From a virus: DNA of 64,000 nt. This document shows positions 1,547 to 37,070 of this stretch, one piece after another. Position 1 is the first letter of the stretch; each line of letters opens with the position of its first letter. The notes below the pieces were generated by a model that saw nothing but the letters and a program-made list of their open reading frames with translations, was not told the DNA's origin and searched no databases. A program made the translations under genes and the position numbers. The stretch covers positions 36,683 through 100,682 of the IMG/VR virus record IMGVR_UViG_3300027057_000001. One strand, written 5' to 3'.

Positions 1547-2054
1547 ACTGGTGAACACCGGGCTGGTCGTGCTCTCCGACAGGGGCCATGTGCTCCGGTC
1601 GGCGACGTACCACTACCCCCTCACCAGCACGAAGAAGCGCAAGGTCACAGAGCGCGACAGGGTGGACCGCATCCTCCACCTCGCAAACGACATCATCGGC
1701 GTTGCCAGGACGTTCAGCGTGCAGCACATCGCCATCGAGGCGGGCGGCGCGACGTTCGGGGCCAAGAGCCAGGCCGTTCAGCGCGGCGGTCTGATGTACG
1801 TGGTGCTCACCCAGATCTGGCTCGCCTGCCACATCTTCCCAGAGACCCCGACAGCCAGTGCCACTAGGAAGAAGGTGCTGGGCTACGGCGGCAGCGGCCC
1901 GAAGACGAAGAAGGGTGAGAAGAAGGTGTCACAGAAGGAGCGGGTCATCGAAGCCCTGCGCCTGGCTGGCATCGAGTTCGAGACAGACCACGAGGCCGAC
2001 GCCTATGTCGCGGCCAGGTGGATGTACGAGACCGTGAAGGAGAGGACGTCATGA
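1467..2054 (+). CDS. RuvC-like Holliday-junction resolvase (start uncertain; overlaps the upstream gene)
   Basis: IIGLDL..NTG, HIAIE and DHEADAY catalytic motifs of the RuvC fold. Confidence 0.75.
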   Translation: MAGVLGSALASAESWRAPGRIIGLDLELVNTGLVVLSDRGHVLRSATYHYPLTSTKKRKVTERDRVDRILHLANDIIGVARTFSVQHIAIEAGGATFGAKSQAVQRGGLMYVVLTQIWLACHIFPETPTASATRKKVLGYGGSGPKTKKGEKKVSQKERVIEALRLAGIEFETDHEADAYVAARWMYETVKERTS

Positions 2055-3082
2055 CGAGAATCGCCAAAAAAGGCGGCGGCTATCGCGAGTTGACCGACGA
2101 GGAAGCGAAGGCCTGCAAGTCAGGCAACCTCGTCTCTCTGTCGGGTGCGAAGGGCGGCGTGGAGGTGCTGACGACAGACGAGACGGAGGCAAACAAGATC
2201 CATCTGCGCCTGATCGATCTCGCCGCCAGGTATCACAGCACGCAGTTCGAGATCGCAGCCCTGCTCTACCGCGTCACCGAGGAGCGCCTGTTCACGGCGA
2301 AGAGCCTGGGGGCCTACGAGACCTTCAAGGAGTACGTGGAGACCGAGCTTGGCTTCTCCCTCCGCAAGGGTCAGATGCTCGCCACCATGCACTGGTGGTA
2401 CTGCATCGAGAACAAGGACGCGCCGAAGCTGCTCGAAGGAGCCCGCGAGATCGGCTGGACGAAGGCGTACCACCTGGTCAGGGTCGTCGATGCGAAGAAC
2501 GCCGACAAGTGGTTCAAGATGGCGAAGGAGATGAACGAGCAGGAGCTTCGCCGGAACGTGCGGGCGGCTCTGGAGGCTGCCGGGAAGAAGAAGGACCGGC
2601 GCATCAAAGAGACGAAGCCGAAGATGAACCCACCACCCGGCATGACACCGGACGACCCGGAGCCCGACACTCCGACCACGGAAGAAGCCGAGGAGAACGG
2701 GCAGGTCGTGGACGACGAGACTGAGTCGGAAGGACCAGAGGGCGTCGATCCTCCGACCGAGGAGCAGGTGGAAGAGGTGAGGGCCAAGGATCAGGAGTGG
2801 ACCACCTACCAGCAGCGCGTGCCGAAGGAGGTCAAGGGCCTCATCGACGACGCGGTGGCGCTCGCGAAGAAGATCGGCAACACGGAGCACCCAGGCTACG
2901 CCCTGAGCCTCATCGCGCAGCACTTCCTGTCGTTCAGCCACGATAAGAAGACGGTGATGATCGGCGAGTGGCTGGCCTGGTTCGAGCGCAACACCGGCCT
3001 GAAGGTCATCGCCGTGGACCCGAAGGACGAGAAGGTGGTCTACGGTCACGACGTCCTGAAGGGCGTTGACGCGGAGGAATGA
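2051..3082 (+). CDS. Hypothetical protein, possibly DNA-binding (DUF3102-like helical N-terminus)
   Basis: GAYETFKEYVETELGFSLRK and IGWTKA segments; acidic linker; ATGA overlap with the upstream stop. Confidence 0.45.
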   Translation: MTRIAKKGGGYRELTDEEAKACKSGNLVSLSGAKGGVEVLTTDETEANKIHLRLIDLAARYHSTQFEIAALLYRVTEERLFTAKSLGAYETFKEYVETELGFSLRKGQMLATMHWWYCIENKDAPKLLEGAREIGWTKAYHLVRVVDAKNADKWFKMAKEMNEQELRRNVRAALEAAGKKKDRRIKETKPKMNPPPGMTPDDPEPDTPTTEEAEENGQVVDDETESEGPEGVDPPTEEQVEEVRAKDQEWTTYQQRVPKEVKGLIDDAVALAKKIGNTEHPGYALSLIAQHFLSFSHDKKTVMIGEWLAWFERNTGLKVIAVDPKDEKVVYGHDVLKGVDAEE

Positions 3083-3335: not shown

Positions 3336-3365
3336 TAGTCTGTCCTTCAGCGGAGGTCAGAAATC

Positions 3366-4964
3366 ATGAAAACCGCGAGTCAATTCGCAGAGGAAATCAG
3401 TGCCATCACGGCAGACCTTCCGGGTGACGACGGCGAGACCGCCGCGATCACACCGGCAGAGCCAGCCCCGGTGGCCGAAGAGCTTGCCGACTGGCGGGGA
3501 CCGCTTCAGGACATCCAGGTGCGCCTCCGCAGAATGATCCAGCAGGACATCGACAAGTTCATGGAGAGCGCCACGAAGATCCTCTCGGACGCCGAGAAGT
3601 CGGACTGGTCGCCCACTGTGGTCCAGAACTCCGTGGCCCGCTGGAGCCGCGACATCAACCGGGTCTACGCCGACTTCGTGAACAGCACGAAGGGGTTCCA
3701 GGGTCTCGTCAAGTCGATGGGCATCCCGACCCGCCGTCACAGCGGCAAGGGGAAGGCCCCCGGCAAGAAGGGCAAGATGAACTGGAAGGGCTTGTCCCAG
3801 ACCCAGTTGAAGAAGGAGGTTCAGCAGCAGGTCAAGCGCCTGTCGCAGGGCATCCACAGCCTAGCTGACGACGGTTCCTTCATGCTCCGCCAGATCGACC
3901 GTATCCTGAAGTACAAGGCCCCGAAGGACGAGACCGTGCGCGAGGAGATCGGCGCGCTGTTCCAGGACTTCGTGGACTTCCGCAACTCCTTCGGGTCGAA
4001 GGTGTGGGGTCCGTACAAGGGGCTCATCGGGCGGCTCGAAGCCATCCCGGCCAAGCCCATCACGAAGTACGGCAAGGAGTACGGCAAGGCCATGCGGAAG
4101 CGCCCATTGAAGACCATGCCGCCGACGCCGAGATTCGCGGCCAACGAGGACGCGCTGCCCATCGACTGCCCGGAGCTTCGCGAGGCCATCGAGCGCGACC
4201 GCCTGCGCGCCACGCGCGGCGTGCTGGGTGAGGACCAGGAGGAAGCAGCGGCGCTCATCGAGGACATCGAGGGCGAGCTTCTGGGCGAGATGGACGACGA
4301 CCCCGAGAAGGGCGTGGCCAGCAAGATGAAGGCGAAGGGGTACAAGTTCAAGGTGCTCCTGAAGAAGGGGGCACCGCTCTACACGAAGACCGAGAAGGGG
4401 GCCAAGGACGTCCAGAAGGACTACCCGGGCTCCAAGATCGTCGCCAACGAGAGCGAGGAGATCGACGACCCCGCCGTCATCGAGGCAGCCGAGCACGGGA
4501 GCCTCTTCGACTTCTTCGAGGACTTCGACAGCCTCTTCGACGAGGAGCCGCTGGACGAGGGGGCCAGCGACGACGCCCCTTTTCTGAGTGAGGCAACCGA
4601 GTTCGAGAAGGGTGTTCGCGTGGCTGATGGCCCGAGCCGACAGAAGATGGCCATCCAGCAGGTCTTCGGTCACATGCGGCTGAAGGGGAACGTCGAGCCA
4701 GGCCCAGGCGGGAAGTTCATGCACGGCGTGGCCAAGATTCCTGGCGGGCATCTGGAGTTCGACGCCGACCGCACGCGCCTGGCATGGACTGCCTTCGCCA
4801 ACGGAAGCATCGTGGACAAGGGCCACAGCCCCTACGGCGGCTCCATCAACCGCATGACCAAGCCCATCGCTGCGGCGATGAAGAAGGTGGCTGCGACGAC
4901 CGAGGGCAATGACCCTCTGAACGACTTCTTCGACGCCCAAGAGCGAAAGTCACTTTCGCTCTGA
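3366..4964 (+). CDS. Modular putative internal head protein (basic domains separated by acidic linkers)
   Basis: GGAGG RBS; N-terminus MKTASQFAEE resembles the T4 capsid-targeting peptide; several hydrophobic-x-E sites. Confidence 0.5.
   Translation: MKTASQFAEEISAITADLPGDDGETAAITPAEPAPVAEELADWRGPLQDIQVRLRRMIQQDIDKFMESATKILSDAEKSDWSPTVVQNSVARWSRDINRVYADFVNSTKGFQGLVKSMGIPTRRHSGKGKAPGKKGKMNWKGLSQTQLKKEVQQQVKRLSQGIHSLADDGSFMLRQIDRILKYKAPKDETVREEIGALFQDFVDFRNSFGSKVWGPYKGLIGRLEAIPAKPITKYGKEYGKAMRKRPLKTMPPTPRFAANEDALPIDCPELREAIERDRLRATRGVLGEDQEEAAALIEDIEGELLGEMDDDPEKGVASKMKAKGYKFKVLLKKGAPLYTKTEKGAKDVQKDYPGSKIVANESEEIDDPAVIEAAEHGSLFDFFEDFDSLFDEEPLDEGASDDAPFLSEATEFEKGVRVADGPSRQKMAIQQVFGHMRLKGNVEPGPGGKFMHGVAKIPGGHLEFDADRTRLAWTAFANGSIVDKGHSPYGGSINRMTKPIAAAMKKVAATTEGNDPLNDFFDAQERKSLSL
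4940..4962. repeat. Perfect palindrome, copy 1 (AGAGCGAAAGT-C-ACTTTCGCTCT)
   Basis: Read directly; the core recurs at 26452 and 47831. Confidence 0.95.
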
Positions 4965-4966
4965 TC

Positions 4967-4995
4967 TTGACCCATAGGCTGCCATTGTCCACAAT
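4967..4995 (+). promoter_or_regulatory. Sigma70-like promoter upstream of the terminase genes
   Basis: TTGACC-17 bp-CACAAT. Confidence 0.5.
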
Positions 4996-8700: not shown

Positions 8701-8858
8701 CCGAGCGAGACGCGATGACAGAGAAGCGAGACGACTCCTGGGTGACTGGCGGAAAGGTGATGGTCCCACCTTCGGCTGGTCAGCGAGGGGGTGGCCAGGG
8801 TATGGTTGGGCAGAAGGTGTCGAACAAGGATCTACCGATGCCGTTCACAAGGGGATAA
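5712..8858 (+). CDS. terL: Terminase large subunit containing an intein (about 687 aa after splicing)
   Basis: Walker A LTGSLGWGKS, Walker B FLDE, motif III FLVSS, RNase H-like nuclease motifs HIDPS, SLDSYQS, DHP..GSKDIAD; directly upstream of the portal. Confidence 0.92.
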   Translation: MAIEIVGGRPRSVRTEKELTQEILESLEAMSEEERLAFLYYLDELEKGNTDVLDEHIKAEYIEEPVDPLTFLLDEYYLGQVGQHMWPKLQEDFVELFEGDYSEAILTGSLGWGKSFFATCGLAYVLYQMSCLANPQEVYGLARGTGLAVAILSATREAARRVPLAELGSKLQLSPYFKEKCPYKIAQTMYEIRFPTKKMMVVAGSTSSAAIGTNVFSGFLDEMAFMGGRRQMDRTGRLVEVDKSEVLTKAIVRRMKSRFMKSGKLPGLMFLVSSKEKPVAFIEQKIEEARAGQAPDVFVRDYCLTGDTIIPLLDGTERRLDDLFAEFGGTDERFEVYSFDVSSGRMVPGRAFRPRLTARAEEILEVELDNGEVVRATPWHPFMLKDGTYRRADELQPGDSLMPLYRRLDDKGYEEVAQPWWGGRWQKTHHMVARAKFGSWPRRGSDGKPTVIHHKGFDKRNNTTGNLQVKEWDEHRRIHTENMETLLRHVRSDEHRRFASERMRALHQDEDFARERDRRGRELLNRLREDEGFRECQAKAASKTLSRFHRTDRGRTRQSERSLKRWDGERKIGGVGVIVDAARCGETITSLAERLGCSPSAVSQRLRRAGMPTYSKLKREAGHASPGNHKVVSVRAGGRSDVYDLSVEGLENFAIGSGVFVHNSTWDVKPQENFSGKTFQIAVGNETVRSKIDPTDEDKEWYEGSGLRVIEAPEEYRPDFESDLEGALRDIAGIATESTSLFVHRREKIVEAIDESLKSPVDVEEWMSGDPLEFWWERVAIPFERPIPGGFTEKAWRPIRHPQAVRYVHIDPSLVGDCAGLVISHIAGHTEVTRRDAGGESYTEVAPVIETDLLLRIIPPPGDEIFLGDIRGIVYEFQAHGFIIAFASLDSYQSADTRQQFKQRGIESEVLSVDKTTIPYESMKTALYENRLRLQDNVTLQRELRALQRVQKTKGVIPKFMIDHPARGSKDIADGLAGTVHSLMTRQPGLPMAPMMSERDAMTEKRDDSWVTGGKVMVPPSAGQRGGGQGMVGQKVSNKDLPMPFTRG
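6618..7700 (+). mobile_element. Intein (361 aa) with an HNH homing endonuclease
   Basis: Starts C-LTGDT, block B TPWHPF, ends VYDLSV...GVFVHN followed by Ser+1; internal VIHHKGFDKRNN...NL HNH motif. Confidence 0.93.
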
Positions 8859-8859
8859 C

Positions 8860-10641
8860 GTGGCAACACTCTGGGAAGGATTCACAGCGAACGTGGGCAA
8901 TGCCCTGCGCTCGTTCTTTGCCCGGACCCCTCAGAGGCAGGCGGCGGAGCTTCAGCGAGGCGGCACACCGGCAGTCTCGATGGCCGGGCTACCATACAAC
9001 CTGGTCACGCAGTTCGGCTACGATGCGCTCGCCAACTACCTCCGCATCGACCAAGACCTCCAGCAGCGCTACACCGACTACGAGGAGATGGACGAGTACC
9101 CCGAAATCAGTGTGGGGCTCGACATCTACGCCGACGACTCTACCAGCCCAGACCTGGACCGGGAGCAGGCGATCTGGGCAGTGAGCGAGGACAAGAGGAC
9201 CGCCGACGAACTGAACCACATGCTCCACAAGCAACTCCTCATCGAGGAAGACATCTGGGGCGTGGTCAGGACGCTGTGCAAGTACGGCAACGTCTTCGGT
9301 GAGTGCTTGGTGACCGACCAGGGGCTCGTGGGCATCAACTACCTCCCTCCGCCGACCACGCGGCGTGTCGAAGGCCCGCGCGGGCAACTCATCGGCTTCA
9401 TCCAGGACATCCGGGGCGAGTTCAACATCAGCCTGGAGGACTTCTACAAGCTCGCGGAGCAGCAGCAGGCGTACCGCCAGGGGCAGACAGACCGACAGGC
9501 GGCACCGGCTGCCATGGGTCGCAAGCCTGGCGAGTTGACCGTCTTCGAGGACTGGGAGTTGATTCACTGGCGACTCCGGGGCAAGCACCTGCGCTCCGTC
9601 TACGGGCACGCGGTCATCGACCCGGCTCGCTGGATATGGAAGCGGCTGGCGCTCCTCGAAGACGCCCTGCTCATCTACAAGCTGGAGCGCGCCCCTGCTC
9701 GCTACGCCTTCTACATCGACGTGGGCGAGCTTGACGCCGAGCGCGGCCTGGCGTTCGTCAACAAGGTCAAGAACAGCTTCACCCGCCAGAAGTTCGTCAA
9801 CCCCAACACCGGCAAACTGGACATGCGGTTCAACCCGCTGGCCATGGACGAGGACTTCTTCGTGCCGGTGCGGGCTGGCAAGCGGACGACCGAGATCGAC
9901 GTCATCAGCGGCCCGGACTATTCCGAGACCGAGACGCTGGAGTACCACCGGGACAAGCTCGTCAGCGCCATCAAAATCCCGAAGGTCTACATGGGGTATG
10001 GCGGCGAGAGCACGCGCAACGCCCTGTCCAGCGAGGACATCCGGTTCGCCCGCACGGTGATGCGGATTCAGCGCGTCACGAGGAGCGGATTCCGCCAGGC
10101 GTCTCGCGTCCATCTCATCGCCAAGGGCATAGACCCCAGGGCCGACTACGACATCAGGATGAACGTCCCGAGCCAGATTCTCGAACTGGCTCGCGTGGAG
10201 GTGATGAGCGCCACTGCCGATCTCGCCTCTCGCATGAAGGAGGACGTCGGCACGAGGTGGGTCCTGACGCACCTCTACAAGTTCTCGGAGGACGAAGCTG
10301 CTGCGGTCATGAAGGAGAAGAGCCAGGAAGAGCTTGACCGAGGCAAGCGCGAGGCCGACATCGAGAAGATGAGGATGGAGGGCATGTCACCGGAAGAGCA
10401 GCGAGATGCCATCCTGAAGGGGGATCTCGATGTCCGTCTGTCGAAGCTCATGACTGCTGTCTCTCGGCGCGACTGGCGGCGCGACTTCGAGCGCCCCCGC
10501 CACGTCGAAAAAAGGGCCGAGGAGAAGCTGTCCCGTGTCCTCAAGGAGAACCGCGATACAACCCGCCGCCTGAAGGAGCTTGGGGGCCTCATGATGGAGA
10601 TTCGTGGGGCACTCAGGGCTTCCGCTGCGCCTCCCATGTGA
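8860..10641 (+). CDS. Portal protein, T4 gp20-like
   Basis: EDALLIYKLERAPARYAFYIDVGEL, MDEDFFVPVR, EDIRFARTV motifs match gp20; GTG start just after the terL stop. Confidence 0.93.
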   Translation: MATLWEGFTANVGNALRSFFARTPQRQAAELQRGGTPAVSMAGLPYNLVTQFGYDALANYLRIDQDLQQRYTDYEEMDEYPEISVGLDIYADDSTSPDLDREQAIWAVSEDKRTADELNHMLHKQLLIEEDIWGVVRTLCKYGNVFGECLVTDQGLVGINYLPPPTTRRVEGPRGQLIGFIQDIRGEFNISLEDFYKLAEQQQAYRQGQTDRQAAPAAMGRKPGELTVFEDWELIHWRLRGKHLRSVYGHAVIDPARWIWKRLALLEDALLIYKLERAPARYAFYIDVGELDAERGLAFVNKVKNSFTRQKFVNPNTGKLDMRFNPLAMDEDFFVPVRAGKRTTEIDVISGPDYSETETLEYHRDKLVSAIKIPKVYMGYGGESTRNALSSEDIRFARTVMRIQRVTRSGFRQASRVHLIAKGIDPRADYDIRMNVPSQILELARVEVMSATADLASRMKEDVGTRWVLTHLYKFSEDEAAAVMKEKSQEELDRGKREADIEKMRMEGMSPEEQRDAILKGDLDVRLSKLMTAVSRRDWRRDFERPRHVEKRAEEKLSRVLKENRDTTRRLKELGGLMMEIRGALRASAAPPM

Positions 10642-11677: not shown

Positions 11678-13720
11678 ATGAGGCACCCTCACAACGCAAC
11701 TGTCCGACCGCTCGACGAAGAGCTTGCCGAGATGGGGCTCAACCCCGACAAGGTGCTCTCCGAGATCGACCGCAACACCGCGATGCTCGAAGGTGAGTCT
11801 CCGCTGCTCGATCCAGCGGGTCTACCCGAAGGCTCCGAGGACGTCCCCCGCTCTCTGGCCCAGTACGGCTCGACCCTGCTGGACGAGAAGAAGAAGTGTA
11901 AGAAGAAGGAGGACGACGACGAGGACGACGACGACTCCGACGACGATGGACCCGAAGGCGACGAGTACGAGGGCATGGGCGAGGGCCAGGACCCGGAACC
12001 CGCTCCCGAGCCAGTCTCCGAGGACGTCATCGTCGAGAAGGAGTGGATCGCCAAGGCGATCAAGGACCCGGGCCGCGTGCGGAAGTACCTGGGCGTGCCA
12101 GAGGGCGAGAAGATCCCGATGGCGAAGATCGAAGCCGCCATCGAGAAGCTGAAGGGCCAGCCCGACAGCGACGAGAAGAAGAGTCTCATCGGTGCCCTGG
12201 TGCTCGCGAAGCGCCTGAAGAGCGGCATCGGCGAGGATGTGACCGAGGACCAGATCTCCGACCTTCTGTACCTCATCGACGAGGGCTGGGAACTCGACGA
12301 GGCTGGTCTCGGCATCGTGAAGAAGGCGCGCGGCGCGGCTGCTCGCCTGGCCAAGCGCATGAGGCACCGGGCCTACCTGAAGTCTCGCGGGGCCATGAAG
12401 CTCGCCGCGAAGATCTACCGGAAGAAGTTCAAGCGGAAGATCAAGCGCCGCGAGAAGATGAAGCTGCGCCGCTTCGGTCGCGAGGGGTTGGCGAAGCTCC
12501 ACAAGATGGGGAAGCGCGTCGTCCAGCGCGTGACCGGGAAGAAGAAGAAGAAGGAGTGGGCCGACACCATCGCCAGTCTCCAAGAGGAGATGGGCGTGAT
12601 GGAGGAGACCTTCGGCATCCAGGAGCCCATCGACGAGGACATCGAGGAGCGCGAATACTCCCCCACGGTGGAGGCCCTTCTCAACGCGGCAGAGACCGCG
12701 ATGTACCTCGGCGAGGTCTTCGACGCCATGGGCGACGAAGCGGGCCAGGTTCTCCTGAAGCTCTCCGACAAGGCCGTGGACCTCGCGGACGTCATCGAGG
12801 CCAATGAGAACGGCGAGCCGACCGAGGAGCAGGAGAAGCACCTGGACACGGTGCTCGATGCCGTGATCAAGGCCCTGGGAGAGTACGAGGACCGGGGCTC
12901 CCCCTCTCTGAGCGAGGCCATCGGCATGGCGCTCGTCGCCGAGGGCGTGGGCACCTGGGACGAACTGGTCGAGTACAAGATCCCGACACCTGCCGAGATG
13001 CAAGCTCGCATCGCTGGCGGGAAGAAGGCGCACCAGAAGACTGGCCACAGGGTTCCGGCTGGCAAGACGGTCTCTCCCGACCCCACGGTCGCCGGGAAGT
13101 ACCTGAAGGCCATCAACATGGCCATGCAGAAGCGCGAGCCTGCCGCAGCGATGAAGGCTGCCGAGAAGGTGCTGAAGAAGCACAAGGTCATGGACGCCAA
13201 GGGGCTGCCGGTCACGCGCATCGACACGATGACCGACGTGCTGCGGACGGTGTTCTACCTCTCGCAGATCACCGGCCTGAAGGCCCCGGCCTGGATGTAC
13301 GCCGGGAAGAAGAAGCCATGGTTCGTGGCCAAGGGCGACGACGACCAGCCCGGCATGGCGAAGACCGACGCGAAGCTCGTCGGCGCGCTGAAGGCCCTGG
13401 GCGCTCCCGCTGGCCTGCTGAAGGCCATGGGTGAGGAGTTCGAGCACGTCACCGACTTCGTCTTCTCTCTCGAAGAGGCGGGGATGGGGGCGCAATCGGT
13501 GGTGCCCGGTCTGGACCCGGACCAGGAGCGCATCTTCGACACCATCGTGCTGATGGCGACGAACGACGGCGCGTCCTACAAGAAACGGGACGCCAAGGGT
13601 GCGGTGAAGAGGGCCGCGACTCAGCACAAGCGGGACGCGGCGAGCGACCTCGCTTTCGACCTGAAGAAGGTCGAGCCCTACGCCACCAAAGAGGTGGCCC
13701 GGCGCTGGGCTGCGGCGTGA
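11678..13720 (+). CDS. Prohead core/internal protein, modular (includes a gp68-like basic tract)
   Basis: Occupies the position of T4 gp67/68; alternating poly-acidic and K/R-rich segments; many L/I-x-E sites. Confidence 0.55.
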   Translation: MRHPHNATVRPLDEELAEMGLNPDKVLSEIDRNTAMLEGESPLLDPAGLPEGSEDVPRSLAQYGSTLLDEKKKCKKKEDDDEDDDDSDDDGPEGDEYEGMGEGQDPEPAPEPVSEDVIVEKEWIAKAIKDPGRVRKYLGVPEGEKIPMAKIEAAIEKLKGQPDSDEKKSLIGALVLAKRLKSGIGEDVTEDQISDLLYLIDEGWELDEAGLGIVKKARGAAARLAKRMRHRAYLKSRGAMKLAAKIYRKKFKRKIKRREKMKLRRFGREGLAKLHKMGKRVVQRVTGKKKKKEWADTIASLQEEMGVMEETFGIQEPIDEDIEEREYSPTVEALLNAAETAMYLGEVFDAMGDEAGQVLLKLSDKAVDLADVIEANENGEPTEEQEKHLDTVLDAVIKALGEYEDRGSPSLSEAIGMALVAEGVGTWDELVEYKIPTPAEMQARIAGGKKAHQKTGHRVPAGKTVSPDPTVAGKYLKAINMAMQKREPAAAMKAAEKVLKKHKVMDAKGLPVTRIDTMTDVLRTVFYLSQITGLKAPAWMYAGKKKPWFVAKGDDDQPGMAKTDAKLVGALKALGAPAGLLKAMGEEFEHVTDFVFSLEEAGMGAQSVVPGLDPDQERIFDTIVLMATNDGASYKKRDAKGAVKRAATQHKRDAASDLAFDLKKVEPYATKEVARRWAAA

Positions 13721-13947
13721 AATGGGTGCCCCTCGAATGGCTGTTCGAGGCCCCGCGAAAGCGACGGACAGCCTATCGAAGTGGGCGTAGAGAGCTTCTG
13801 GGAGTGGAGACGCGACGAAATATCATTGGCTTCGAGAAGCCTGGTGAGCGTAAGATAGCTCCCAAGAGGAAGCGCCCGAAGAAGTCGAGGAGCGTCATAG
13901 ACCGCACGGCACTGAGGGCGAAGACGAAGAAATCGAGGGTCTGGTAA
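13717..13947 (+). CDS. Small basic protein with W-x-x-L-x-x-L-F-E leader
   Basis: GTGA overlap upstream, TAATG overlap downstream; Arg/Lys-rich. Confidence 0.6.
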   Translation: MKWVPLEWLFEAPRKRRTAYRSGRRELLGVETRRNIIGFEKPGERKIAPKRKRPKKSRSVIDRTALRAKTKKSRVW

Positions 13948-15599
13948 TGGCCGAAATTCTCATCGACTCCATGCCTCTGGAGTTCACGCTGGAAGAGGCG
14001 AAGGATCGCCCCGGCAAGTACGTGGCTCGTGGGCAGTTCGCCCGCAGCGACAAGCCGACCGAGAACAAGCGGCTGTACGGCCCCCACCTGTGGGAGCGCG
14101 AGATCGGTCGCCTGTCCGACTCCATGAAGGGCCGCATGGTCTTCGGCGAGTTGGACCACCCGGCTGACGGGCGGACCAAGCTCCAGCGGGTCTCACACAT
14201 CCTCACCAACCTCCGCGCCGATGGCGCTGAGATCATGGGCGAGGCGGAGATCCTGGACACTCCCAACGGGCGCATCCTGAAGGCCATCCTGGACGCCAAC
14301 GGCAAGGTCGGCGTGTCCAGCCGTGGATTCGGGACGACCAAGGTGACCGGCAGTGGAGTCCACGAGGTGCAGGAAGACTTCCGTCTCCACACATTCGACT
14401 TCGTGGCGGACCCCGCAATGAAGACGGCGTATCCCGACGTGTTCCACGAGGAGACGCAGAAGATACCGGAGGACGGCATGGAACTGACCCTGGAAGACCT
14501 GAAGAGGGACTACCCAGGGCTCGTGGAGGCGCTGTCGAGCGAGGTCAAGACCGCCGCTCTGACGGAGGCTGGCGAGACCCATGGGCAAGCTCTCAGCGAG
14601 GCGGTGACGGCGGCAGAGGAGCGCACCGAGGCGAGGCTGCGAGAGCAGTTCTCCGGTGAGCTTCGGCGAACCATCGAGCAGATCGAGGAGTCGGCTCGCG
14701 AGAAGGCCCACAGCGAGGCCGCGAGCGACCCGACCCTGGCTGGCTCGAAGCTGGCGGTCGAGCAGATCGCCCGCATCATCGCGCCCTTCGGCGTCCCGAT
14801 GGACCAGAAGGCGGAACTCGACCGCAAGGACGAGGAGATCGCCAAGCTGAAGGGCGACCTCGCCGAGCGTGACCTGGAAATCCAGGCCGCGAAGAAGCAG
14901 GCCGAGGAGTACAAGGCCGTCGCCACCGAGGCGGCGTTCCAGCTTCATCTGGAGCGCCTGGTGTCGGAGGACGACTCCAAGGACGCGATCATCTCACTCG
15001 TCGGCGCTGTCGCCCAGTACGGCACGACCGACGAGATCGAGGCCAAGGTGGAGGCCGTCAGAGACGAGCTTGCCAAGGCCAAGGTGCAGGAGCAGGAGAA
15101 GGCGGAGCAGGCCGACGCCGAGACCCAGGCCAAGATCGAGGAGATCGAAGCCCGGCTCGATGCGGCGGAAAAGAAGGCCGAGGAAGCCGAGGCCGAGAAG
15201 GAGAAGGCGAACGACCGCACCCGGAAGGCTCTCCAAGTGGCCGAGGAGATGCAGCTTGCGATTCACGTCGAGCAGCGTCTTCGCGAGCACAAGGGGGGCG
15301 ACGACCTGCGTGCCCTGTGCGAGAATGCCAAGTCCGCCGACGAGGTGGACAGCATCATCGCGGGGTACGACGAGCGCCATCCCGAGCCCCCTCGCATCGA
15401 CGAGGATCAGGCACAGCGGATCAGGAGCCGCGCGGCCACCGGGAAGGAGCGGGACATTCACGAGGACACTCACGGGAAGCCCGAGGACGAGGGCAAGGGC
15501 AACGGCGTGGACGAGCACGCCGAAGACCCCCTCGCCGCCCTGGGTCTGACCGAGGAGCAGTTCGACGAGTTCGCCGGGACGAAGGGTCTCGACAGTTAG
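13947..15599 (+). CDS. Prohead protease (T4 gp21-like) fused to a coiled-coil scaffold
   Basis: GELDHP, VSH, TPNG, GVSSRGFG, FDFVADP motifs; long E/A/K coiled-coil C-terminus. Confidence 0.9.
   Translation: MAEILIDSMPLEFTLEEAKDRPGKYVARGQFARSDKPTENKRLYGPHLWEREIGRLSDSMKGRMVFGELDHPADGRTKLQRVSHILTNLRADGAEIMGEAEILDTPNGRILKAILDANGKVGVSSRGFGTTKVTGSGVHEVQEDFRLHTFDFVADPAMKTAYPDVFHEETQKIPEDGMELTLEDLKRDYPGLVEALSSEVKTAALTEAGETHGQALSEAVTAAEERTEARLREQFSGELRRTIEQIEESAREKAHSEAASDPTLAGSKLAVEQIARIIAPFGVPMDQKAELDRKDEEIAKLKGDLAERDLEIQAAKKQAEEYKAVATEAAFQLHLERLVSEDDSKDAIISLVGAVAQYGTTDEIEAKVEAVRDELAKAKVQEQEKAEQADAETQAKIEEIEARLDAAEKKAEEAEAEKEKANDRTRKALQVAEEMQLAIHVEQRLREHKGGDDLRALCENAKSADEVDSIIAGYDERHPEPPRIDEDQAQRIRSRAATGKERDIHEDTHGKPEDEGKGNGVDEHAEDPLAALGLTEEQFDEFAGTKGLDS
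14478..15599 (+). CDS. Putative nested scaffold protein from an internal in-frame start
   Basis: GGAGG at 14468-14472, ATG 5 nt later, exactly at the protease/coiled-coil boundary. Confidence 0.5.
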   Translation: MELTLEDLKRDYPGLVEALSSEVKTAALTEAGETHGQALSEAVTAAEERTEARLREQFSGELRRTIEQIEESAREKAHSEAASDPTLAGSKLAVEQIARIIAPFGVPMDQKAELDRKDEEIAKLKGDLAERDLEIQAAKKQAEEYKAVATEAAFQLHLERLVSEDDSKDAIISLVGAVAQYGTTDEIEAKVEAVRDELAKAKVQEQEKAEQADAETQAKIEEIEARLDAAEKKAEEAEAEKEKANDRTRKALQVAEEMQLAIHVEQRLREHKGGDDLRALCENAKSADEVDSIIAGYDERHPEPPRIDEDQAQRIRSRAATGKERDIHEDTHGKPEDEGKGNGVDEHAEDPLAALGLTEEQFDEFAGTKGLDS

Positions 15600-15630: not shown

Positions 15631-17127
15631 ATGGAAGCGAGGAACCAACTCACCGAGGCCGGTGCCAGGAGCATCAGGGATGAATCCTACACCGCGCAAC
15701 TGAAGGGCAAGTGGGGCAAGTACCTGAAGGGTGTGAAGGAAGAGCACACCCAGAAGTGCATGGCCATGCTCTTCGAGAACCAGTTCGGCGACATGCGTCG
15801 TCAACTGTCGGAGGACACGCTGGCCGTGAACTCGGCGGAGTACACCAAGTACATCTTCCCCGTTCTCAGGCGCGTCTTCCCCAACCTGATCGCCAACGAG
15901 GTCGTCAGCATCCAGCCGATGACCGCGCCGGTCGGGGCCGTGTTCTACTTCGAGTACAAGCACGGCAAGTCCAAGGGCTCGACGGCGGCGGGCACCAACC
16001 TGCTCCAGAACTTCGACGAGAACTACTCGGCGGAGTTGGTGCAGTGGGAGCAGCTTGCCGCCATCGTGGCCGGTGGCGAGTGGTCCGGGGCGACCCCCGG
16101 CTCCGTCATCCTGGCCTACTCCCCGGTGCGACCGCTGGACACCGCTCTCGGCATCCGGTGCGTCATCCAGGAGTACAACCCGACGACCGACACCGTGGTC
16201 CAGGAGGCCATCGACGACGGCGCGGGCGGGTTCACGGGCGCGGTGGCCACGGGCGTCATCAACTACGCCAACGGCCAGGTGACGAACTTCACGTTCGCCG
16301 CCGCGACCACGGCGGGCAACGTCGTTCGGACGTCGTACCAGTACGACTCCGAGGCGAACCGTCTGGTCCCCGACGTGTTCATCGACATCGAGCTTCAGGA
16401 GATCCGGGCCACCACGCGCAAGCTGAAGGCCCGCTGGTCCTCCGAGGCTGCCGACGACCTCCGCGCCTTCCACGGCGTGGACGCCGAGACCGAGTTGGTC
16501 AGCGGCATCTCCCAGGAGATCTCGCTCGAACTCGACCGGGGCATCCTGGAAGAGCTTTTCCAGGCGTCGGCTGGCATCGTCCGGTCCTTCGACTTCACCG
16601 TCCCGGCGGGGCTGTCGGAGATCGACCACATCCGGTCGGTCATGACCCAGATGTCCAACGTCAGCTTCCAGATCCACAAGGAGTCGCGCCGGGCTCCCGC
16701 GAACTGGGCCGTGACGAGCCCGGAGGTTTCCTCCAAGATCGTCCAGCTTCAGACGCACATGGACTACCGCGCGCCGTGGGTCTCGGACCCGGCCAGCCCG
16801 AGCGGCCCCTACGACGGCACCGTCGTGCCGCCGAGCTACGGCCCGATCACGAGCCACTTCGGCATCCTCCGCATGGGGCCTCTGAGCAACAAGTGGATGA
16901 TGTACCAGGACCCCTTCTTCAGGACGAACTACATCCTGCTGGGGCTCCGGGGCCAGAGCTACCTGGACGCGGGCTTCGTGTTCGCGCCCTACGTGCCGCT
17001 CCAACTGACCCCGACGTTCCTGGACCCGGAGGACCAGACCTACCGGAAGGGCCTCCGCACCCGGTACGCCACGAAGCTCCTGCGGAGCGAGTGGTACGGA
17101 AGGGTTCAAATCACCGGAGGTCTGTAG
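15631..17127 (+). CDS. Major capsid protein, T4 gp23-like
   Basis: IQPMTAPVGAVFY, RKLKARWS.EAADDL.AFHGVDAETEL, FAPYVPL, RKGLRTRYA; likely maturation site QLSE61. Confidence 0.95.
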   Translation: MEARNQLTEAGARSIRDESYTAQLKGKWGKYLKGVKEEHTQKCMAMLFENQFGDMRRQLSEDTLAVNSAEYTKYIFPVLRRVFPNLIANEVVSIQPMTAPVGAVFYFEYKHGKSKGSTAAGTNLLQNFDENYSAELVQWEQLAAIVAGGEWSGATPGSVILAYSPVRPLDTALGIRCVIQEYNPTTDTVVQEAIDDGAGGFTGAVATGVINYANGQVTNFTFAAATTAGNVVRTSYQYDSEANRLVPDVFIDIELQEIRATTRKLKARWSSEAADDLRAFHGVDAETELVSGISQEISLELDRGILEELFQASAGIVRSFDFTVPAGLSEIDHIRSVMTQMSNVSFQIHKESRRAPANWAVTSPEVSSKIVQLQTHMDYRAPWVSDPASPSGPYDGTVVPPSYGPITSHFGILRMGPLSNKWMMYQDPFFRTNYILLGLRGQSYLDAGFVFAPYVPLQLTPTFLDPEDQTYRKGLRTRYATKLLRSEWYGRVQITGGL

Positions 17128-36252: not shown

Positions 36253-37070
36253 CGCTCAACGCCTCAGTCGGCGAACTGGTCCAGATCCAGTTTCCAGCCT
36301 TCGACATCGACGGGATCACCCCGCTGACCGGGCTCGTGGACAGCGACTTCTCGAAGCTCCTGCTCCGCGACAACACGGTCAGCGCGGTCGCCGTCACCGT
36401 GTCCGAGGTGGGCGCGACGGGGCGCTACGTCATCCGGTTCACCCCTGACGCTGACGGGCTCTGGTACGCCGAGGTCGAGACCCCGGTGGAGGACATCTTC
36501 GCCGACCAGGTGGAGGTCGGTCCTCCGCCAGACGACTGGCTCACGGCCATCGCGACCGAGGTCTGGAGCACTATCCTGCCTGGCACCTTCCCGGCGAACA
36601 GCGCGGGCTACAGGCTGGCCCAGGTGGACGCCAACGTGGCCGACATCCACGACGCGCTCATCATGGCGGTCCTGACGGCGAGCGGCGGGGCCGTGGACGG
36701 GGTCCTCACGAACGCCACCCAGGCAGACGGCTTCTACGATGGGCTCACCCTGGTGGTCCGTAACGCGGCTGGCAACGTCTCGCGGCGCATCGACAGCTAC
36801 GTCCAGGCGGACGGGACCTTCTACTTCGACGACGATCTCCCCTTCGTCCCAGCGGCGGGTGACGAGGTCATCGTCCTGGGTGTCCTGGGTAAGGTGCTCT
36901 GCGAGAACAGCGACTCGCTGCTCACGAAGCTCGTCGAGATCTGGCAGCGGCTTGGGCTCGACCCGGAGAACCCGCTCTGCATCACGAAGACCGAGCAGAC
37001 GGCTGACGGCTGGAAGATCATCAGCACCGTGGTGGGCAACAAGATGATCAACACGAGGGAGGACACCTAG
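36249..37070 (+). CDS. Structural protein (Ig-like/fibre)
   Basis: VTVSEVGATGRY and IATEVW..SAG motifs. Confidence 0.55.
   Translation: MTLNASVGELVQIQFPAFDIDGITPLTGLVDSDFSKLLLRDNTVSAVAVTVSEVGATGRYVIRFTPDADGLWYAEVETPVEDIFADQVEVGPPPDDWLTAIATEVWSTILPGTFPANSAGYRLAQVDANVADIHDALIMAVLTASGGAVDGVLTNATQADGFYDGLTLVVRNAAGNVSRRIDSYVQADGTFYFDDDLPFVPAAGDEVIVLGVLGKVLCENSDSLLTKLVEIWQRLGLDPENPLCITKTEQTADGWKIISTVVGNKMINTREDT

Follow-up and report, generated by a model that had tools for sequence, protein, structure and literature searches.

Why would a viral gene that opens with a peptide resembling a phage capsid-targeting sequence continue into three basic domains held apart by acidic linkers? The question is raised by the gene for P0001, a 532-residue protein encoded in a 64,000-nucleotide stretch of viral DNA (IMG/VR record IMGVR_UViG_3300027057_000001, positions 36,683 to 100,682), which is called the window throughout. 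The internal proteins of phage T4 are the classic case of proteins injected into the host ahead of gene expression, and one of them, IPI, blocks a restriction enzyme. An earlier interpretation of the window made from its letters (the sequence-only reading) proposed that P0001 likewise enters the prohead, where the phage protease would release several independent domains for injection with the DNA. Sequence comparison and structure prediction support the view that P0001 is built from modules that fold separately and can be exchanged and, by analogy with T4, we hold with moderate confidence that it is a packaged head-cargo polyprotein of a distant T4-like phage that is cleaved internally.

Modular architecture of P0001

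The open reading frame (ORF) recognized earlier at 3366-4964, with the start MKTASQFAEE, is a real gene of 532 codons, and the three basic domains and the acidic linkers that the sequence-only reading had described lie where it placed them. Its basic segments correspond to residues 41-260 (isoelectric point, pI, 10.2), 309-362 (pI 9.5) and 410-513 (pI 10.0), and the two linkers between them have pI values of 4.1 and 4.05; the boundaries adopted here are given in Table 1. Charge is segregated along P0001 much more strongly than chance would produce: in windows of 40 residues, net charge has a variance of 39.1, compared with 11.5 ± 3.7 in shuffled versions of the protein, and none of 5000 shuffles reaches 39.1.

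An AlphaFold2 model of P0001, built with 15 homologues, contains confident blocks at about residues 44-225, 320-360 and 419-512, separated and flanked by regions in which the predicted local distance difference test (pLDDT) falls below 50 (residues 18-40, 233-268, 281-318, 361-375, 390-418 and 513-532). Because the predicted template modelling score is only 0.37, the model indicates no fixed arrangement of the domains relative to each other. Module 3 refolded alone adopts an alpha-beta5-alpha structure with a core pLDDT above 90. Structure prediction, a check that the sequence-only reading had put forward segment by segment, thus yields three separately folded units on predicted disordered linkers. 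A single fold conserved from end to end, which the same reading had named as an outcome that would speak against it, was not seen: the modules are predicted to fold separately, and they are exchanged among homologues.

Exchange of cassettes at glutamate-ended joints

The leader, modules 1 and 2 and the linker between them (linker 1) are common to the 16 close homologues of P0001 (42-78% identity, 325-807 residues), which differ through gains, losses and duplications of inserts that lie after ELLGE (exactly after LLGE) and after linker 2; module 3 is present in only four of them. Among the large insertions and deletions that separate these homologues, about 7 in number, 4 have [LIVMF]-x-E at each edge. 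P0015 equals P0012 with 98 residues added exactly between ELLGE/ and ADELEQ, the insert ending in YLGE/ (here and below, a slash marks the position after Glu), and P0010 equals P0006 with 97 residues added and ELTE/ at both edges; the inserts that distinguish P0003 from P0009 and P0014 from P0003 are likewise flanked by [LIVMF]-x-E on either side. P0027, a distant relative with a module 1 of only 24% identity, contains the cassette that P0015 has inserted. Upstream of other cassettes in the homologues, PF-x-L-x-E also recurs, and the terminal cassette of relatives, described below, is always preceded by L-x-E/MS.

An exhaustive search with phmmer through 1.84 billion representatives yielded 30 relatives. 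All 30 contain the module 1 unit (~170 residues), the only module common to this wider family; it occurs in proteins of 205-1292 residues, at positions that range from the N terminus to residue 582 of 799. P0021 and P0037 have their modules in opposite order, P0022 carries two copies of one module, and module 2 is duplicated in P0005. Two modules also occur by themselves: module 2 makes up the 88-residue P0028 (56% identity), which has a short leader of its own, ending LRE/AEASKM at the point where module 2 begins in the polyproteins, and module 3 makes up the 122-residue P0036 (39% identity). The search for stand-alone or shuffled domains that the sequence-only reading had proposed thereby succeeds for modules 2 and 3, which stand alone, and for module 1, which changes position. 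Only the exhaustive phmmer search retrieved the stand-alone forms; a word-indexed search for shorter proteins found no stand-alone module, and scans of IMG/VR with P0021, P0018, P0028 and P0036, together with a scan of genome contigs with alignment A1, found nothing.

All the junction motifs that had been pointed out in P0001 are present (VAE38/E, VLGE289, LLGE308, PLDE398, FLSE409, ANE261 and ANE362). The shared ANE endings of the first two domains do exist, at residues 261 and 362, but homologues do not keep the one that ends module 1; because only N361-E362-S363 after module 2 is invariant, the resemblance is probably a coincidence. In the ELLGE motif, the Leu codons differ (CTT, CTG and TTG) while the peptide is kept. 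Codon identity there is 0.68 compared with a background of 0.69 and, since silent sites are no more conserved than background, selection acts on the ELLGE peptide and not on the DNA. We considered the joints as DNA-level recombination repeats and rejected this on the same background-level conservation of silent sites.

Distant relatives carry an acidic-aromatic peptide, LPW-x-x-DP(E/D)(L/F), which follows module 1, follows module 2 or lies at the C terminus (P0018, P0027-P0029, P0032, P0035, P0037 and P0039-P0042). The stand-alone module 2 protein P0028 also ends with it, and the clade of P0001 has DDPAVIE...LFDFFEDFD at the same place. This peptide could be a second docking or recognition signal.

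A portable leader

The T4 capsid-targeting sequence is MKTYQEFIAE (PMC8442874). In the T4 record, IPII and IPIII begin with MKTYQEFIAE/A, and IPI begins with MKTFKEF...ITE/A and is cut at ITE19. MKTASQFAEE of P0001 is identical to the T4 sequence at 5 of 10 positions and fits a metagenomic consensus, MKTFKQFxEE, at 7 of the 9 defined positions, position 8 being free. The claim of a T4-like targeting peptide made in the sequence-only reading gains from a wider view of this consensus: we place the P0001 leader in a portable family that includes the T4 targeting sequence because MKT..QF.EE heads at least 46 unrelated cargo clusters.

Scanning IMG/VR located MKT..QF.EE on at least 120 viral contigs (loci L012-L130), compared with only a handful expected by chance, as estimated from the information content of the pattern. 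Among the matches listed, 106 start an ORF of at least 50 codons, and these 106 leaders have Phe at position 4 in 97 cases and Lys at position 5 in 70, neither position being set by the pattern. Behind the leader stand at least 46 unrelated cargo clusters of 51-920 residues, 43 of the 46 being basic among the matches listed. The commonest cargo among the matches listed is a 51-residue protein (for example at L018:1785-1937) that is annotated as hypothetical and maps to T4-like myophages of Synechococcus and Prochlorococcus (Bellamy, S-SM2, P-TIM68 and S-CAM9). From these matches, MKTF(K)QFxEE looks like an unannotated, widespread capsid-targeting leader; among the papers searched, none contains the string MKTFKQF. 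Within the 100-kb contig, a search for a second gene with an MKT..QF.EE leader found none besides that of P0001.

The head protease and its candidate sites

The protease that the sequence-only reading had assigned to the gene starting at 13947 is of the gp21 type. It matches Pfam PF03420 (5e-16) and phrog_207 (6e-46), and alignment to T4 gp21 shows both the catalytic His and the catalytic Ser to be kept, His71 and Ser124 in the motifs GELDHP and GVSSRG aligning to His85 and Ser140 of the T4 enzyme. This is the presumed processing enzyme for P0001. In T4, gp21 cuts after L/I-x-E and removes leaders of 10-19 residues from internal proteins (PMC9026906); it also trims both ends of Alt and fragments core proteins, with acidic pieces exiting and basic proteins staying (PMC9026906; PMC5694885). 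Candidate maturation sites of the hydrophobic-x-Glu type, LFE49/N and QLSE61/D, are found in the N-terminal region of the major capsid protein encoded in the window. For P0001, the processing-site candidates after the leader are F7-A-E9, A8-E-E10 and the conserved (V/L)-x-E38, and there is no strict L/I-x-E at position 10. In T4, an Asp in place of Glu at P1 prevents processing.

In the region 14418-14480 inside the protease ORF, a leader-like in-frame stretch (MKTAYPDVFHEE) was considered as a second leader and set aside, being without a good ribosome-binding site. The ATG at 14478, with GGAGG 5 nt upstream, is the likelier nested scaffold start.

Proposed route through the head and rival explanations

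By analogy with T4, we infer that P0001 is packaged, cleaved, retained and ejected. The T4-type leader, possibly aided by the helical module 1, would direct the precursor, itself near neutral, to the prohead's scaffolding core, where the gp21-type serine protease would cut after Glu in the disordered acidic linkers, at E9/E10, E38, E289-E308 and E373-E409. Peptides from the acidic leader and linkers would then exit the capsid, and three basic proteins of about 28, 7 and 13 kDa would stay with the DNA and probably be ejected together with it. Over evolution, the linkers serve as the joints where cassettes are gained, duplicated, reordered and lost. We advance more tentatively, as possible but short of probable, a plug-in cargo loader, in which the leader and module 1 as anchor would carry exchangeable small basic cassettes, each bounded by a head-protease site, separated only once within the capsid and then delivered along with the DNA; the MKTFKQFxEE proteins would be its single-cargo form. 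The multi-domain capsid delivery put forward by the sequence-only reading is supported in part, and by comparison only: for the modularity, the leader, the protease and the junction motifs.

Several observations weigh against this cleaved-cargo proposal. The linkers of P0001 hold 8 [LIVMF]-x-E sites, compared with 5.5 expected at the same composition (P=0.15), and the weight of the motif comes only from the comparison of homologues; moreover, the hydrophobic-x-Glu specificity of the protease in the window is ascribed to it from T4 gp21. Some joints deviate, module 3 starting after Q-T-E in P0002-P0005, and the second module 2 copy in P0005 has fuzzy ends. The stand-alone module 3 protein P0036 is without a leader, and tblastn of P0001, P0022 and P0042 against 50,697 phage records gave no match and hence no cultured relative. 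A sigma-70-like promoter, preceded by a hairpin, lies on the 3' side of the gene, whose transcription unit is thus apart from that of the head genes. Finally, P0001 has Ala and not an aromatic residue at leader position 4, and T4 targeting rests mainly on leader residues 4 and 7 (PMC9026906); a search with the strict Ala-4 leader pattern matched orthologues of the P0001 gene only, and we infer the portability of the Ala-4 leader from its Phe-4 relatives. The motif count in particular lends itself to a different explanation, which we judge unlikely, that P0001 is packaged essentially uncut as a multidomain internal protein, either a small polyvalent protein or a MuF-like carrier with module 1 anchoring it to the portal or core and the variable modules as its cargo. 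At most an N-terminal propeptide would then be removed, and the acidic linkers would be only flexible spacers. The number of L-x-E motifs in the linkers is as composition predicts, linkers rich in Glu and Leu easily yield such motifs, and module 1 alone is common to the whole family, like the conserved MuF anchor with its variable partners (PMC5512222). An uncut carrier does not account for large indels that start and end exactly at [LIVMF]-x-E, nor for ELLGE, L-x-E/MS and PF-x-L-x-E peptides that are kept while codons and adjoining linker residues drift, nor for a stand-alone module 2 whose own leader ends in LRE/ at the module start used in the polyproteins; in addition, Pfam and PHROG scans match P0001 to no family, MuF included.

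If the protein is cut, its pieces might instead be expelled, as from a disposable prohead core or scaffold accessory that, like T4 gp22, gp67 and gp68, builds or sizes the head and is then chopped. The gene adjoins packaging and head genes, the acidic leader and linkers offer many Glu sites, module 1 is a long helical bundle, and T4 core proteins are indeed cleaved into several fragments (PMC9026906). We nevertheless consider this the least probable of the explanations weighed here: the protease already has a scaffold-like coiled coil fused to it, profile comparison of module 1 with T4 gp22, gp68 and IPIII shows no similarity, and the strongly basic character of the folded modules is that of the T4 internal proteins, which are retained, and not that of the acidic fragments, which are expelled. 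Highly variable cassette content and a dispensable terminal cassette would, in addition, be unusual for an assembly factor. The separate transcription unit and Ala-4 noted above bear most directly on the suggestion that P0001 never enters the virion and is a modular cytoplasmic protein (a hub, a regulator or a DNA-binding protein) whose N terminus merely resembles a targeting sequence; the gene is set apart from the terminase-like and portal genes and co-oriented with genes for 354- and 89-residue proteins. This is quite improbable in our judgement. From amino-acid frequencies, we roughly estimate that a protein would match MKT..QF.EE by chance with a probability of ~1e-8, and P0001 has the sole such N terminus in its contig; the ten leader residues hardly vary, whereas the 27 that come after them drift; the leader heads at least 46 unrelated, mostly basic cargo clusters, the commonest of them (among the matches listed) traced to T4-like cyanophages; and protease-type motifs lie at the cassette joints.

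Relation to known systems

For a cleaved cargo polyprotein, the nearest known system is that of the T4 internal proteins with their capsid-targeting sequence. P0001 shares with them an MKT-x-x-(E/Q)-F-x-x-E leader, with a candidate hydrophobic-x-Glu site after it (IPI also has a spacer), basic cargo parts that are hypervariable behind the conserved leader, and the presence in the same genome of a gp21-type protease together with T4-type portal and capsid genes. Unlike T4, which has one small protein per gene, a single gene for 532 residues here puts three modules behind one leader, and internal cuts would be needed to free them; its acidic spacer spans 38 residues compared with 10-19, and its leader has Ala at position 4. 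The cargo of P0001 shows no homology to IPIII in the profile comparison of module 1.

In T4 Alt and in the ejection or inner-body proteins of phiKZ and SPN3US, the cuts made by a gp21-related protease follow the Glu of a three-residue motif and in some cases lie at both ends of a head protein or at several sites (PMC5694885). These cuts strip propeptides from one mature protein, whereas those proposed for P0001 would free several exchangeable modules. Polyvalent proteins, described by Iyer, Burroughs, Anand, de Souza and Aravind in 2017, are shuffled multidomain proteins for which delivery with the DNA has been proposed, and they include MuF-effector fusions (PMC5512222). P0001 resembles them in combining unrelated domains in one chain beside packaging genes, its gene lying, like theirs, next to a portal-terminase packaging module, and in having architectures that are shuffled among relatives. 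Unlike them, it is without enzymatic, anti-restriction or peptidase domains in Pfam and PHROG scans, its modules being tiny and basic, and it would depend on the prohead protease for release at linkers and on a T4-type leader for targeting, not on built-in peptidases or MuF.

To our knowledge, work on the capsid-targeting sequence has so far been confined to T-even phages, where it tags single small proteins. If P0001 is indeed a cleaved cargo polyprotein, distant T4-like phages would load strings of exchangeable modules from one gene by the tag and protease logic of T4, and the known range of virion-delivered proteins would grow. Metagenomes could then be searched by a simple rule, a leader combined with Glu-ended joints; the diversification of such cargo sets would be explained; and nature would offer designs for packing several foreign proteins into phage heads. 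Were the plug-in loader true as well, capsid-targeted cargo would be general, and largely unannotated, in T4-like phages well beyond the T-evens. The modules themselves are candidates for host take-over or counter-defence factors that act in the first minute.

Searches for module function

The further suggestion of the sequence-only reading, that the released domains are anti-defence effectors, was guesswork that found no support in our searches, in which no module could be matched to a family already known or to a clear fold. Scans of P0001, 14 homologues and 10 distant relatives with Pfam and PHROG returned nothing except phrog_9437, which is matched by the terminal cassette; hmmscan gave no Pfam match to MuF (Phage_Mu_F), the comparison with MuF being by Pfam profile only; and sequence profile searches of the PDB gave no match. 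With hhalign, the module 1 profile showed no similarity to T4 IPIII, gp68 or gp22, the probability being at most 0.3% for gp22 and gp68.

Structural searches were similarly unspecific. Foldseek of the full model against PDB and BFVD returned generic helical bundles only, and the ESM Atlas gave no feature match for module 1, with structural template modelling scores of about 0.5 to unrelated helical proteins. For module 3 alone, VIA-align listed Med17C, type III secretion chaperones, YbjN, frataxin and the FP domain at a best Z of 7.7, and we assign no fold to this module because that value is within the stated noise of the tool. The modules are small, basic and non-enzymatic-looking, and may bind proteins or DNA.

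Genomic setting

The window, from an uncultured phage, has a G+C content of 63% and comes from a contig of 100.7 kb; an identical P0001 is also recorded on a contig of 156.7 kb. Relatives of this phage lineage occur in metagenomes from marine, wetland and mangrove sites, and a check of public runs listed none that holds its RNA. Co-oriented with the P0001 gene are a gene for a 354-residue protein (2018-3082) and one for an 89-residue protein, neither with an assigned role. On its 3' side and on the same strand follow genes for a 235-residue protein, a 1048-residue terminase-like ATPase, a T4-type portal, and proteins of 310 and 680 residues, and further 3' those for a 76-residue very basic protein, the gp21-type S77 protease and a gp23-type capsid protein (Table 1). 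The order from the P0001 gene through the 235-residue protein and the terminase-like ATPase to the portal is preserved in the related loci L001, L002 and L011.

Table 1. Coordinates, within the window, of P0001, its parts and associated features
Feature	Position	Strand	Description
Shine-Dalgarno sequence, GGAGG	3352..3356	+	9 nt 5' of ATG, read from sequence
Whole gene P0001, candidate capsid-targeted cargo polyprotein	3366..4964	+	ORF open for 532 residues plus stop
Leader, residues 1-10, MKTASQFAEE	3366..3395	+	almost unchanged across 15 homologues, unlike residues 11-37, whose sequence and length vary
Spacer, residues 11-38	3396..3479	+	acidic, variable, disordered; ends at conserved (V/L)-x-E38
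Module 1, residues 39-261	3480..4148	+	pI about 10.2; folded core at residues 44-232, four long helices, basic loop (TRRHSGKGKAPGKKGK)
Acidic linker 1, residues 262-308	4149..4289	+	pI 4.1; LRE273, VLGE289, LIE299, nearly invariant ELLGE308
Module 2, residues 309-362	4290..4451	+	pI 9.5; small alpha/beta unit (KMKAKGYKFKVLLK...DYPGSKIVANE)
Acidic linker 2, residues 363-409	4452..4592	+	pI 4.05, net charge -18; VIE373, FDE393, PLDE398, PFLSE409
Module 3, residues 410-513	4593..4904	+	pI 10.0; confident alpha-beta5-alpha fold
Disordered tail, residues 514-532	4905..4961	+	
Sigma-70-like promoter	4967..4995	+	TTGACC, 17 nt, CACAAT; right after stop codon; conserved in L001 and L002
Terminase-like ATPase with intein, 1048 residues	5712-8858	+	Pfam Intein_splicing 4e-17
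T4-type portal (gp20 family)	8791..10641	+	Pfam Portal_T4 6e-59
Prohead protease, S77, gp21-like	13947..15599	+	protease at residues 1-about 160 (His71, Ser124), plus acidic coiled-coil scaffold-like region
gp23-type major capsid protein	15631..17127	+	phrog_138 3e-61; BLASTP to T4 gp23 1e-27

The C terminus of P0001 differs from that of most relatives. In P0002-P0015, about 95 C-terminal residues form a terminal cassette with the pattern MS-x-V-x-KTIFQQ-x-GGGR...WY-x-R-L, which matches phrog_9437, a stand-alone phage family of 98 residues with no assigned function (E 5e-12); a search for a trace of this cassette in the 100.7-kb contig found none. The final seven codons of P0001 (ERKSLSL) instead traverse a 9-bp hairpin with stems at 4941-4949 and 4953-4961. 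In the related locus L001, the hairpin and the promoter are both intergenic, past the stop codon. Compared with its relatives, the P0001 tail running through the hairpin is the scar of a lost terminal cassette, which most of them carry. The hairpin-promoter unit occupies 4941-4995 in the window, 11739-11790 in L001 and about 12040-12115 in L002, and the predicted promoter marks the start of the next transcription unit, which encodes the 231-235-residue protein, the terminase-like ATPase and the portal.

The closest cultured portals, from Flavobacterium and Microcystis myophages, are only ~32% identical to that of the window. The ATPase contains an intein of ~360 residues with an HNH endonuclease and a helix-turn-helix, and its orthologues in L001 and L002 are intein-free, at 687 residues. 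As large terminase, the 1048-residue ORF of the window and the 687-residue ORF of L001 were tried and rejected (BLASTP to T4 gp17, E 0.43; no PHROG match), and we call the ORF no more than terminase-like, because its alignment with T4 gp17 is confined to the Walker A and B regions.

Two further proteins are encoded between the portal and the protease. The 680-residue protein (11678-13720) has the second-highest density of hydrophobic-x-Glu motifs, 4.1 per 100 residues; in it, very basic tracts of Lys and Arg alternate with acidic stretches, and the DNA-binding family Fusello_VP2 gives a short match. The protein appears to be a second modular one, of the core or of the cargo. The 76-residue protein (13717-13947, pI 11.8), encoded directly 5' of the protease, starts with MKWVPLEWLFE/A, a different type of leader ending in L-F-E, and occupies the position of T4 gp67/gp68.

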